From contig OZ024743.1 in the NCBI GenBank assembly GCA_964016885.1, forward strand, positions 268,646,001 through 268,710,000: 64,000 bases of DNA, in the 5' to 3' direction. The stretch's first letter is position 1; each line of letters starts with the position of its first letter. The stretch comes from Eledone cirrhosa. Lineage: Eukaryota. The notes below the pieces were generated by a model. That model did not search any database. It saw only the letters and a list, made by a program, of their open reading frames with translations, and was not told the DNA's origin. Shown here piece after piece: positions 9,011-43,660 of the stretch. The translations under genes were made by a program, and so were the position numbers.

Positions 9011-9360
9011 AAAAACAAATAACGAAACGAAATTAAATTTCGTTTCGCTTCTAACTCACTTTTGTATGACTGACGCTTAAACAATTAAGTTAAAGTGTAC
9101 ATCTACATATGTATACGGAAGTACTAGTATGCATATAAATACACGCATGTATACATATGTACATGTACCGAGTTTTTCACTAGACACTTTACAGTGAGTG
9201 TCCAGCTAGTCTGTATGTAAACAAACAGACGAACCGGGTTTTAAAGTCATACGAGTTTTCAAGGAAACACACTTCCTCTATTCTCCAGAGAGCCAGACAG
9301 GAATATTGGACTAGTTTCGATGTTATTACATCTCATCAGCAATATATACCTATCTATACA
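9011..9360 (-). mobile_element. Diverged member of retrozyme family A, flanked by (TA)n
   Basis: Shares ACGAAATT..TTTCGTT terminus, GTAAACAAACAG block and HHR architecture with the units at 31641-32832. Confidence 0.7.
9299..9351 (-). ncRNA. Canonical type I hammerhead ribozyme
   Basis: Minus strand: AGG-TAT-ATATTG-CTGATGA-GATGT-AATA-ACATC-GAAA-CTAG-TC-CAATAT-T-CCT. All core nucleotides present, G10.1-C11.1, GUC site. Confidence 0.92.
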
Positions 9361-9699
9361 TGTATATTTTATATATATATATATATATATATATATATAT
9401 ATATATATATATATATATAATATATATATAATATATATATATATATATATACATATATATATATATATATATATATATATATATATATATATATATATAT
9501 ATATATATATATACATATATATATATATATATATATATATATATATATATATATATATATATATATATATATATATATATATATATATATATATATATAT
9601 ATATATACTTAGGTTAATAGGAGTTAGGTATTGTATACCCGTGTCCCATTAAGGTATTGGCAGCATAATAATTAGCTCTATGCTTTGGAGCAGAGCCGT

Positions 9700-11272
9700 A
9701 TATATGATAAAGAACACAAGAGCGTCTACAACATCAAAAGATTTGTATTGGCTTACAATGTTTCTTCCTTACGTAACCGTAGGATCCGTCAGAGCTATAA
9801 AAGGGGTTTGATTGGTGTTATGGACTCTACCAACCAAACATTCAAGAACAAAGAGTAAAGAGAGTAAAGAGCAAAAGCAGGGGACGATAAGTCTAATTTT
9901 GGTGCGGGAGGGTGGGGTGTGGGTCCTTGTTTACTAGCTGTGGTCATATTCATTCCCGGGAGTCGAGTGGTTAGTTGAGCCATAGATGGGGTGGCGTCGA
10001 TAGTAGGGTGCAGAGGGTGTGCAGAGGCTACACACACACAAAGGGCATACAATATATATATAACGGAGGAGAAAGTACATGAGGTAATTAGAAATGGAAA
10101 AAGAGTAATAATAATAATCTATAATTAATTGTTTCTACTTTAGGCACAAGGCCAGCAATTACCCAGTGCATTACTGGTACTTTATTTTATCGACCCCGTA
10201 AGGATGAAAGGCAAATTCAACCTCGGCGGGATTTGAACTCAGATCGTAAAGGGACGTAACTATGCTGGAAAGCATGCGTCCGACCCTCTACCGATACTGC
10301 CAATCCACCGCCCTTTTAGACCAGCCACGGGATGCCGAAACCCGGGATAATAATCTATAATTAATAATGTATAATAAGGCATGGGGAAGATTACACTATA
10401 ATAAGGTATAAAAGTAAGAATAAGGTAAAATATAAAGGAGGATAAAAGTGAAAATAAGAATAAAGATAAAAAAATATATATATATAAAAATATATAGAGA
10501 ATATATAAAGAAATATAAGCAAGTATTAGAAAGGGAAAAACACAATGTAAAAAAACCGATTTTTTTCAAATAAAAATATTATAAATATGGGGGGAGAAAA
10601 CGGGATAGAGAAATATAATCAAATGTGATTAGTTGAGAGAATATAAGATGATAATAGTTATGTCAAGTTTATACATCTTAATATATCAGAGTTACACATC
10701 CTTCAATTCACTTGCAAGTTCAACCCACGTGGCATAGTCCATTGTTCATCTGTGCGGTCATGTGCGTTTGTTTTTGACACCACAGCAGATGCACAAGTTC
10801 GTAAATTCCAATGCAGATAGAAATCTATTTTTGCTCACCCAGACATTGACGGAGGATCCAATATTCCTAGTTCAATATATGTGTGGTGTTATTTTGGTCG
10901 CACAAATCAATCACTTGGTTCAATATTATGGAGTATGGTTTTCTGGTCTTCGTAACAGTGTCAGTGGTTGTATATCTCGAAATCACAAGGATCACAGTAC
11001 TCCGGTTTGGTGTGATTATCGGTCATCCAACTATGTTAGTAAACAAGGACCCACACCCCACCCTCCCGCACCAAAATTAGACTTATCGTCCCCTGCTTTT
11101 GCTCTTTACTCTCTTTACTCTTTGTTCTTGAATGTTTGGTTGGTAGAGTCCATAACACCAATCAAACCCCTTTTATAGCTCTGACGGATCCTACGGTTAC
11201 GTAAGGAAGAAACATTGTAAGCCAATAAAAATCTTTTGATGTTGTAGACGCTCTTGTGTTCTTTATCATATA
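9700..11272. mobile_element. Penelope-type inverted pseudo-LTR pair (~9700-9936 / ~11037-11272) with a SINE (10125-10313) inside
   Basis: ~235-bp near-perfect inverted repeats ending in (TA)n. Each holds an HHR-like motif (11176-11224: TAGCT-CTGACGG-hairpin-GAAA-CATTG-TA-AGCCA). Possible decayed GIY-YIG remnant (IFLVQYMCG / YFGRTNQSL) at ~10860-10935. Confidence 0.7.
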
Positions 11273-12581
11273 TATATATATATATATATATATATATATA
11301 TATATATATATATATGTATATATATTACTCAATACCGAGTACTCATTTCTCTCAGCTGTCAACCACAATACGGATATGTATATATTAGGGTGGCCCTTAG
11401 CAATAGGTAATCCGAAAATTAACATTTTGCTGCTCCCACAGTGAAAAATAAATGTGTGCCCTATACCCTAGCTCTGTCTCCAGCTTTGCAAGTTGCCTTC
11501 CTAATTATATTTATTGTCACTCATCCTTCTAATACAAAGAATAAGTCTGAACAAGTTTTTAATTTAAGAGAAAATTATATAAGAGATAAAAATTTTATCT
11601 GAAAAAATGACTTTTCGGACGAAAACTTCAAAATTTCACGGACAATGAGGGTCGCCTTAGAATTGTCTGCTTGAGGTACAATTTTGCATAGATCGGTTTC
11701 TTATTAATTGAAATAAGATAGTGGGAGCTAAACTTTAAGAAAGTTGAAAAATAAGGGCCAATCTGATATATATATATATATATATATGTGTGTGTGTGTG
11801 TGTGTGTGTGTGTGTGTGTGTGTGTGTGTGTGTGTGTGTGTGTGTGTGTGTGTGTGTGTGTGTGTGTGTGAATAATTTTGATCAGTACACAATAATATCG
11901 ATCATATAATTTGATAATCGCCCGATGACACATAAGATAATATAATCTAGACAAACGTATTGAGCACCATGCGTAGATATATAAATATAAAGAGCATAAC
12001 AAAAGCGGGAAAGGAAGCAATGAACTTACATGAAGATGGTAAATATCTATTCTTAAGGCTTATAATGATCTGCTTCGAGCCGAAAAGTAATAATGCAGAT
12101 TACCATTATATAGATAAAGTGCATCATAAAGAAGTGTGGCACTCGTCAGAAGTCAACATCTCATTATTTACGCATATCTCCAGCTATCAGCCAAACAATC
12201 CAATCACAATGAGTGAAAGAACATGTATTATAACAACTAAGCCGAAGGATAGAGGCAGACCAATAAGAAAGCTCCGCGTTAGGCCCATAATTCAGCTCAA
12301 CAAAAGCTACAAATATCAAAAGCAGAGACACAAAAATAAGTTTGATCAATACACAATAATGTCGATCATATTGTCTTGTAATCGCTCAATGACAAACTAG
12401 TTGCAAAAAGAACTGGTCAGAGCGCACACACCAGTTAATAATTGTTTCTACTGTTTACACAAAGCCAGCAATTATCCCAGTGCATTACTGGTACTCTATT
12501 TTATCGACCCCGTTAGGATGAAAGGTAAAGTCAAACTCTGCGAGATTTGAACTCAAACCATAAAGGGTGGTAATAATACCT

Positions 12582-12902
12582 AGTATATACTTTCCTTATG
12601 CATATTAACGGCTGAGCAGCCTAATTTGCATATCGAGTGAGTTCAGTCGGCCGGGCACTCCGAAAACGATAAATGGAATAGAATGAAACGAAATTTCATT
12701 TTTCACTCTTAGTACGGCACTTACTTAAATGTAAGTATGTATGTATGTATACGTACATACATATATGTATACAGACGTACAGTAGTATGTATATATATAA
12801 ACCGATACGTGCATATATGTATGTGTGCATTTATGTATATATATACATACTACCGTACGTCTGTATACATATATGTATGTACGTATACATGCTTACATAC
12901 TT
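12582..12902 (-). mobile_element. Partial retrozyme family A unit ending in a local palindrome (12733-12902)
   Basis: Matches 23118-23320; no HHR segment included. Confidence 0.75.
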
Positions 12903-42250: not shown

Positions 42251-42473
42251 ATGAAAAAAATATATATATATATATACATATATATATATGTAAGCTGTGT
42301 CTAGGTGAATAGATAGTCCGCGTATGATTTGACGAATTTCGAGTGTGAGTACAGTTTATTTGGTAGGGGTCATGGGTACAGGTTTGCCTTCAGTTTAGGG
42401 TATTTGCTGATGGTGAGTAGAATGATTGCAGCAATAAATAACGTTCTTATTTGCATATATATTTATATATATC

Positions 42474-43380
42474 CCCCTCCGCTTCCGTGGTATTTTCTTC
42501 GGGGTTATAAGAGGCTTAGCTCTGTTTCTCGACCGTTATATCGCGTGACTATCTCCCCCTTCGCCTTTTGGGATTCTTTCTCACGTCGTGTAGACGCGTT
42601 CTTGAGACTAGTAAAATGAGGTATCCTCTTGATAATTCGGCAGACCTCGCAAGGACTCTATATCTTTATGATGTATTGTTTTTGTTTATGCCACGAAACT
42701 ACGTAGTCGAGGAATTTAGGAGCAGTTTAGGTATGATACATTTTATTACTAATTATATCTAAATGTTTCTTCTCTCTTTATAATGTATTTTTAACTCTGA
42801 TACTGGTTCAGTCTGGTTCAACCGGATTGGTCTGTCCCAGTCATTCATTGAGCAACATCGGTGAAGTTGGCACCCTTAACTCACGGTTGGGTGCGGATGC
42901 ATTCATGTATATGTGTGTGTCCGCATGTATCTGTGTTTCTAAATATATTGTTAATAACTCCCTCTTGTCGAGCAATCTTTGAGGTGTGGGGACTGCTGGA
43001 AAGCTTCCATTACTCATACTTCTCGCCTCCTTCACCACCTCTTCTACGGCTTCGATATAAATACGCCCTCCGCCTCCGTGGTATTTTCTTCGGGGTTATA
43101 ATAGGCTTAGCTCTGTTTCTCGACCGTTATATCGCGTGACTATCTCCCCCTCCGCCTTTTGGGATTCTTTCTCACGTCGTGTAGACGCGTTCTTGAGACT
43201 AGTAAAATGAGGTATCCTCTTGATAAGTCGGCAGACCTCGCAAGGACTCTATATCTTTATGATGTATTGTTTTTGTTTATGCCACGAAACTACGTAGTCG
43301 AGGAATTTAGGAGCAGTTTAGGTATGATACATTTTATTACTAATTATATCTAAATGTTTCTTCTCTCTTCATAATGTATA
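42474..43380 (+). mobile_element. Retrozyme family B: 1.5 units with a 591-bp period, one HHR per unit
   Basis: ~315-bp direct repeat 42474-42788 / 43066-43380; HHR motifs at 42624-42713 and 43215-43304. Confidence 0.85.
43215..43304 (+). ncRNA. Type I hammerhead ribozyme with U3-A8 core variant
   Basis: TCCTC-TTGATAA-GT(C)GGCA..TGCCAC-GAAA-CTACGTAG-TC-GAGGA. Confidence 0.8.
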
Positions 43381-43399
43381 TATATGTATATATATACAC

Positions 43400-43660
43400 A
43401 AGCAACCGATGTGTACTTAAGAAATTACTATATATTTTCAACCGTTCAGCAGACTCGCAGAGGTATGCAGTCCTGATGAAGGATAATGACCCAGAAACAT
43501 GTTGATTGTTCCTCAAATCCACTGTTGAACAAACAGTCGACGATCTGTCACCGGCACGGCACAGCGTCAAATCGTGCCGTTTGTCTACAAACGAATTGAA
43601 CATTATTATCAATGTTCGACATAACCCATACGTACATATGTATATACGTATATGTGTGTA
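43400..43660 (+). mobile_element. Highly diverged retrozyme family A relative with HHR at 43460-43514
   Basis: GAGG-TAT-GCAGTC-CTGATGA-AGGAT-AATG-ACCCA-GAAA-CATG-TT-GATTGT-T-CCTC; downstream GTTGAACAAA and AACATTAT..AATGTTCG..AACCCATACGTAC blocks shared with family A. Confidence 0.78.

Follow-up and report, generated by a model that had tools for sequence, protein, structure and literature searches.

Tandem hammerhead retrozymes of Eledone cirrhosa with a promoter-like block of the small nuclear RNA type and a Penelope-like insertion signature

A stretch of 64,000 nucleotides from the octopod Eledone cirrhosa (assembly GCA_964016885.1, contig OZ024743.1, positions 268,646,001 to 268,710,000; referred to as the window, on contig C4 of the searched genome) contains several copies of a hammerhead ribozyme, the stems of which differ in sequence and still pair. 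This locus raises the question of why base pairing is maintained between such copies, and how they are transcribed and moved. We consider it reasonably probable that they are type I hammerheads in tandem retrozymes of 310-500 bp, which likely possess an internal promoter of the small nuclear RNA (snRNA) type, are predicted to cleave as double hammerheads, and are likely copied into (TA)n by the reverse transcriptase (RT) of a Hydra-clade Penelope element. Compensatory changes would then arise without a host function, because descendants would be left only by source elements whose ribozyme and promoter both work.

Hammerhead architecture, families, and covariation

A strict search for the hammerhead layout yielded six occurrences in the window, and none in 100 shuffled windows. 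The original prediction had listed five copies with one layout; this was found at all five (9299-9351, minus strand; 32077-32129 and 32492-32544, plus strand; 42073-42125, minus strand; 43461-43513, plus strand), with the last beginning at 43461 instead of 43460, while the list had missed a copy at 23038-23090 (minus strand) and a core-mutated copy at ~31646-31698 (plus strand; CTCACGA, loop CTAA). Cleavage is predicted after 9309, 32119, and 32534 in the first three, respectively. The canonical core (CUGANGA...GAAA...UH) with an open helix I was present in the window and family copies, together with 6 bp in helix I, 4 bp in helix II, and 1-2 bp in helix III with a palindromic loop, as in type I; the first pair of helix II was often mismatched (U-U or A-A in five of the six window copies). 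The canonical metazoan type I hammerhead (PMC4209133) has the same helix sizes and a palindromic loop, and is active as a dimer; a difference is that the 10.1-11.1 pair was mismatched in most of the present families. In Rfam, the single hammerhead match among the 150 of 246 matches listed was HH9 (9287-9357; 35.8 bits, under the cut-off of 52).

The pattern CTGAYGA-N5-AATR-N5-GAAA-CWWG-T had 17,179 exact matches in the microsatellite-rich genome of 3.0 Gb, versus none for the reversed control pattern. Tandem units spanned 310-502 bp, each with a type I hammerhead. They showed no long terminal repeat (LTR) structure (the primer-binding site and polypurine tract were not searched for), and inside the window array (local GC of 0.25-0.38) no frame of at least 120 amino acids was found, except TA-repeat frames at the array edge. 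By these sequence features, the copies appear to be type I hammerheads of canonical form, carried by several non-LTR retrozyme families, and the layout, tandem units, and genome-wide number bear out their earlier assignment as retrozyme hammerheads. Metazoan non-LTR retrozymes are known as tandem non-coding units with such hammerheads (PMC7229834; Cervera and de la Pena 2020), and resemble the present ones in unit length (a few hundred bp), copy number (thousands), and the co-occurrence of Penelope elements. Axolotl HHR_Amex1 of the same study has the same one-pair stem III with a palindromic tetraloop, and HHR_Amex2 the same U-U at the base of helix II. In the available text, that set includes no cephalopod-like host and describes no internal promoter, in contrast to the promoter-like block found here. 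We found no report of such elements in octopods in a literature search whose coverage excluded subscription journals and Repbase.

Family F1 (32077, 32492, and 42073 in the window) has units of 415-434 bp, with one subfamily of up to 502 bp. A single family with diverged subfamilies had been proposed, and this holds only in part: the copy at 9299 represents a separate family, F2, with a 469-bp unit. F3 (43461) is ~72% like F1 and was seen only as dispersed single copies, and F4 forms long young arrays with units of 310 and 312 bp. Six additional families (G2, G3, G4, F5, F6, and F7) were defined from further pattern searches and the returned loci. One F4b array (C1:177851074-177856626; G000) contains ten units on one strand and nine on the other, head-to-head, with 100% identity between the units compared, and an F2 array (L027-L030) mixes units with CTAG and CTCG in loop 3. 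Hammerhead-like cores of separate families were also observed in the window: a head-to-head pair at 7220 (minus strand) and 7325 (plus strand; CTGAGGA...GAAACAATTG) and a core at 38500 (plus strand; CTGATGA...GAAACGTT). The F1 hammerhead region occurred in sequence runs from the organisms labelled A, B, and C, and runs X1 and X6 contained tandem joints; these contigs are of unrecorded kind and blind to start, cleavage, and level.

All four stem Ia pairs quoted previously were present in the window; the stem Ia at 32077 (ACTATG/CATCGT), which had not been quoted, contained a T-C mismatch. The bulge, described as TAT throughout, was TGT at 32492. Stem II at 43461 was indeed weak, and this was caused by a private G-to-A change: the family mode, AGGGT/ACCCA, was found in 15 of 24 copies. 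On the other hand, the TAT bulge and AAT[A/G] loop proved not to be fixed, since the young homogeneous F4b arrays have the loop TTACGA, and one F1 subfamily has the loop TAACAA with the bulge TAA. The geometry of the bulge and loop 2 appears to be conserved while the letters vary, leaving fewer conserved letters than claimed for the putative loop I-loop II contact.

Covariation was measured by pair counts, permutations, and slid controls, and pairing was never required by the search patterns. In an alignment of eight subfamily copies, 95.3% of cells were paired and 12 of 16 pairs had changed on both sides; this score was reached by none of 500 shuffles, and slid-partner controls paired at 34-49%. 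Because the eight rows are related, which inflates this result, a second set covered seven families with a single real copy per family. In this set, stem Ia was paired at 42 of 42 positions, a result matched by only one of 5,040 permutations of the 3' strands, and pairs 2-4 of stem II at 21 of 21 (2 of 5,040), and the earlier claim that compensatory changes reveal selection on RNA structure stood. Such covariation was to be expected, because this architecture has already been published for the canonical metazoan type I hammerhead (PMC4209133). Two points count against the main reading: the F6 representative was the best-paired among five copies, and the 10.1-11.1 pair was mismatched in six of the eight rows, which may slow cleavage.

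The level at which selection acts was indicated by decay. F1 copies were collected via a flanking anchor, and copies selected by the core pattern were removed. Among 60 neighbouring copies, the catalytic core differed at 19 of 606 sites (3.1%); the values were 3.2% for the octamer (see below) and a median of 3.3% for 211 other columns. Inserted copies therefore decay neutrally, and the covariation between families reflects selection on the replicating source copies, not the inserted ones. The alternative that the host maintains hammerheads because they serve it locally as regulatory RNAs, to which the very high copy number and the structured (predicted) folds of the monomers might point, appears extremely improbable in view of this equal rate of change in the core.

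A promoter-like block upstream of the core

The 12-mer TATGCAAATNAG was identical in seven families, 84-107 nt upstream of the core. Units found by their hammerhead carried ATGCAAAT upstream of the core, at -88 (F1), -87 (F3), -100 (F2), and -104 (F6). In F5 and F7, one old copy each carried the 12-mer, with one and two mismatches, respectively. The same 12-mer (TATGCAAATGAG or TATGCAAATTAG) was present in U6 genes at -76 and -77, with TATA at -30; a third type of U6 promoter had one mismatch (identity in two of three types). TCAGT was found at -56 to -58 in all eight distinct U1 and U2 promoters, which also had an AT-rich box near -30. The U1 (L196-L201), U2 (L176-L178), and U6 (L226-L228) genes sit in tandem arrays with compact promoters. 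When the retrozyme families were anchored on the octamer, YCAS was found 16 nt on in six of seven and TATA at 42-45 in several, within unrelated flanks; by BLAST, F2 and F6, and F6 and G4, shared nothing beyond the 12-mer.

A profile of the proximal sequence element (PSE) was built from the eight U1 and U2 promoters and contained no octamer. It picked the site at octamer+16 in F1 (score of -1.8), F3 (9.4), G2 (-1.4), and G3 (16.7 and 12.5), with strong matches in F3 and G3, and a site at -77 in F4 with a moderate score (6.2); left-out snRNA genes scored 10-27, and 0.016% of window positions reached 8. In the window, the block of putative promoter function at 32000-32048 (plus strand) consists of TATGCAAATTAG (32000-32011), TCAGC (32017-32021), and TATATA (32043-32048), with a predicted start at ~32074; in a second block (32430-32451, plus strand), the octamer and TCAGC are kept and TATA is deleted. 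The implied start would lie 14-26 nt upstream of the core, at helix I and, in F1, ~46 nt ahead of the cleavage site. It is likely, from this match to the genome's own snRNA promoters, that the block drives retrozyme transcription. We found no report of this promoter within the same literature coverage.

Several observations weigh against this assignment. The PSE was weak in the dominant family F1 (-1.8, matched by ~1% of window positions) and in G2 (-1.4), and the profile missed the expected site in F2, G4, F5, F6, and F7. F4 units were searched and lacked the octamer, which was also absent near the PSE in the U1 and U2 genes examined. A search for the octamer with CTGAYGA, in which GAAA was not required, gave 5,369 matches, and 12 of 30 loci held the rest of a hammerhead (G2, G3, G4, and F6). 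Three of these families (G2, G3, and G4) were new; having been found via the octamer, they provide no independent support for it. The other 18 loci were one chance match in the frame of a long interspersed nuclear element (LINE), and the zero control of this search was therefore misleading. The octamer of F1 and F2 is also located within a predicted RNA hairpin, and the 5' ends of insertions are not concentrated at the predicted start, with 2 of 62 at -14. A cluster of 5' ends at 270-290 was rejected as a start marker, since it coincides with a microsatellite and probably results from misalignment.

Some of these observations would also fit the same retrozymes without a promoter of their own, read through from neighbouring genes, with the 12-mer kept as an RNA element or by descent. 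The general model of read-through is given in section 9 of a 2020 review (PMC7761336), in which metazoan retrozymes seem to have neither promoters nor any motif pointing to the mobiliser; the location of the F1 octamer within a hairpin, the weak or absent PSE score in F1, F2, G4, and F6, and the lack of a 5'-end peak are in line with it. However, the 12-mer also occurs upstream of U6 genes, in DNA that is not transcribed, the partner arm of the hairpin varies between families while the 12-mer is constant, and the U1/U2 spacing of TCAG and TATA is kept in F1, F3, G2, G3, and F4. We regard transcription purely by read-through as unlikely.

As for the polymerase, II is favoured by the spacing; the octamer, by its position, is reminiscent of U6, and III may still be used, given the T runs at +263 (F1) and +293 (F2). 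In its full form, the latter alternative assumes U6-type polymerase III transcripts resembling short interspersed nuclear elements (SINEs), which end at the internal T run, with arrays built later at the DNA level. The U6-like octamer box, the position of 22 of 69 F1 3' ends at +264 to +281, just after a T6 at +263, and one F2 end at +299, after a T5 at +293, are consistent with such transcripts. On the other hand, the octamer-to-TATA distance is 42-45 nt versus 46-48 nt in U6, and 34 of the 69 ends are at +211 to +228, where a T run is absent. Furthermore, the promoter part is included in the arrays, which lie on either side of inversions; read-through or a circular template is therefore needed. 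This alternative is, in our judgement, very unlikely.

The internal snRNA-type promoter has a precedent in a promoter-carrying hammerhead repeat, newt satellite 2. In the work of Coats, Zhang, and Epstein in 1994, its octamer and PSE were reportedly found to be used, with a start shortly before the cleavage site. This satellite is a dimer-type hammerhead repeat (PMC2220036, PMC6765202) with an snRNA-type RNA polymerase II promoter (PMC2220036). The present case differs in its invertebrate host, the number of families (at least seven), and the compact predicted octamer-PSE-TATA block, in which the octamer matches U6 while the PSE and spacing match U1/U2. More tentatively, and with slightly less confidence than we would place in an even chance, animal non-LTR retrozymes may in general be self-promoting through an snRNA-type promoter captured in each repeat, from which transcription would begin at helix I of the hammerhead and continue into the following unit, the newt case being the rule from amphibians to this invertebrate, with Hydra-clade Penelope elements as mobilisers by their insertion signature, despite the lack of common sequence. 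The promoter of Schistosoma Sm-alpha is tRNA-like. For these hammerhead SINEs, a polymerase III transcript has been reported and tandem copies are needed for propagation (PMC6765202); the order of promoter and then hammerhead is alike, and the promoter-like block here is of the snRNA type.

Palindromic loops and dimer cleavage

In GAAA-NNNN-U, one A-U pair closes the tetraloop, and the predicted energy was +6.0 kcal/mol as a hairpin versus -4.6 to -7.5 kcal/mol as a two-copy duplex. CTAG and CATG had been taken as stem III; they cannot form an intramolecular stem, because its loop would be 2 nt, and the palindrome pairs only between two hammerheads, leaving stem III as one base pair with a palindromic tetraloop. 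The modal sequences of loop 3 were CTAG, CATG, CGCG, and TGCA, every one of which is palindromic. When a stem II of 15-16 nt was searched without constraint on the two middle loop letters, palindromes were found at 20 of 30 loci versus 25% expected, and in 76 of the 100 matches listed (counted by eye); the control gave 88 matches versus 326. G2 (L257, L278, L279, and L282) has a 15-nt helix II region, the palindrome TGCA, and the bulge GGG/GA replacing TAT. In G3 (L263, L270, L271, L280, and L281), the best U2-like promoter match is combined with a stem III of three pairs and the non-palindromic loop TTAG, providing a natural control of the monomer type. Loops not beginning with C were rejected as a further family: in the 14-nt layout they gave only 70 matches, which were scattered mutants and decayed copies.

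By constrained folding, the double hammerhead was better than two monomers by 15-20 kcal/mol in all five dimers, and its distance from the free minimum was ~2 kcal/mol or less in four dimers and 10 kcal/mol in the window pair. Since a palindromic loop 3 is a known sign of dimer cleavage, the units are predicted to self-cleave as double hammerheads, which fits the dimer mechanism of newt and axolotl. Transcription from the promoter of each unit would start at helix I, read-through into the next unit would supply the second hammerhead, the two palindromes would pair to form helix III, and double cleavage would release a monomer that is then circularised; in the window, 32077 and 32492 are the putative dimer partners of a 415-nt monomer (32120-32534). 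A point against this is that eight of nine tested Xenopus dimers failed to cleave (bioRxiv 10.64898/2026.07.22.740005).

Insertion signature and the candidate mobiliser

Among 69 F1 3' ends, 34 were located 211-228 nt and 22 were 264-281 nt past the cleavage site, and only two at it; 3' ends were thus sharp and internal to the unit, and 5' ends were scattered. TA runs followed the 3' end in 52 of 69 F1, all three F2, and 11 of 12 F4 insertions, and 18 of 19 opposite-strand neighbours were head-to-head (5' inversions). The F1 array of the window (31642-32841, plus strand; ~2.8 units of 415-430 bp, beginning with the core-mutated hammerhead) has its 3' end in (TA)n and its inverted 5' piece, head-to-head, at 31504-31642 (minus strand; 89.5% to 31767-31907). 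The F2 insertion at 9010-9355 (minus strand) is 5'-truncated, with the promoter part missing, and its 3' end lies 299 nt past the cleavage site, followed by (TA)n. A lone F1 insertion at 41809-42248 (minus strand; octamer at 42186-42193, hammerhead at 42073-42125) also ends in (TA)n; an F1 fragment at 12582-12850 (minus strand) retains the octamer (12624-12631), with the hammerhead absent; and an old F3 insertion at 43404-43705 (plus strand; loop 3 CATG in the hammerhead at 43461-43513) is cut off just past the octamer position.

The candidate mobiliser in the window is a Penelope-like element at 27480-31160 (plus strand) with an RT and GIY-YIG frame (27782-29539) and a hammerhead core at 30967. 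The C-terminal GIY-YIG, DKT, CxCX5C linker, CxxC, CxH, hammerhead, and (TA)n insertion assign it to the Hydra clade, by motifs alone. The frame is broken near 27760 by an internal deletion, and an inverted copy runs leftwards from 27473. Pfam returned no family for the protein; it had 79 relatives at 32-44% identity, nearly all unnamed. From 40 scored copies of the 3' part with 98-100% identity, among 1,442 candidates, the element appears to be young. By eye, 27 of 30 loci ended in a TA run (16 when counted more strictly), and an inverted copy lay upstream in 10 of the 15 that were truncated. Insertion into (TA)n in Hydra, and inverted truncated 5' copies in Penelope elements generally, have been described (PMC8557442), and the element in the window resembles the Hydra-clade elements in its (TA)n insertion, inverted 5'-truncated copy, and the DKT, CxCX5C, CxxC, and CxH motifs. 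The Penelope enzyme would nick (TA)n and prime on internal UA-rich sites of the retrozyme RNA, giving tandem, 5'-truncated, and often inverted copies.

The retrozyme units share no sequence with the window Penelope element outside TA repeats, in contrast to the pLTR (pseudo-LTR)-derived Xenopus families (bioRxiv 10.64898/2026.07.22.740005), and the link between the two therefore comes from the insertion signature alone; other (TA)n-targeting elements could possibly mobilise the units, and both points tell against the proposed mobiliser. The 100% identity within F4b and one F1 array, and 89-96% in others, is an ambiguous marker of a circular template. Transduction of the array 3' of a Penelope element was rejected as a general route: a sense retrozyme was found downstream in none of the other 28 Penelope loci. 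The composite of Penelope element and retrozyme in the window is hence a single case, which may be a local duplication or an assembly artefact.

An inverted duplication of 4.57 kb (22839-27394 / 27760-32328; 99.6% identical) spans part of the retrozyme array along with a Penelope element and host flank; it may represent transduction, local duplication, or an assembly artefact. The hammerhead at 23038-23090 (minus strand), in its left arm, is the mirror of the 32077 copy (100%), and this arm adjoins an L1/Tx1-like LINE (~18340-22840). Hammerheads of the Penelope type, at 30967 (plus strand), 24186 (minus strand), and 41659 (plus strand), have a long helix II and a TATA palindrome, lie ~200 nt before the 3' end of the element, and have no upstream octamer. 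Other repeats in the window are a SINE-like repeat of ~190 bp in at least seven copies (6120-6309, 10120-10312, 33644-33834, 43941-44119, 48666-48851, 52996-53191, and 55862-56040), a direct repeat of 325 bp (97.5%; 42465-42788 / 43055-43379) between two hammerhead copies, and an inverted repeat of 238 bp (9699-9936 / 11037-11274), 1.1 kb apart, which may be the ends of a DNA transposon.

The covariation that first drew attention to this locus is what a known ribozyme in a known class of element is expected to show. The apparent novelty lies in the match of most families to the genome's own snRNA promoters and in their Penelope-like manner of insertion. The promoter-like block and the insertion signature bear on the transcription and the mobilising enzyme of metazoan retrozymes, both of which are listed as open in section 9 of PMC7761336. 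Found together in one genome are at least seven diverged families that share a promoter-like block, four loop-3 palindromes with a non-palindromic family as a control, and a young candidate mobiliser whose insertion signature matches that of the retrozymes. The promoter motifs of U6 and U1/U2 could serve small-RNA expression in this group of animals and, if the proposal is true, self-promotion would replace the current read-through model of retrozyme transcription.

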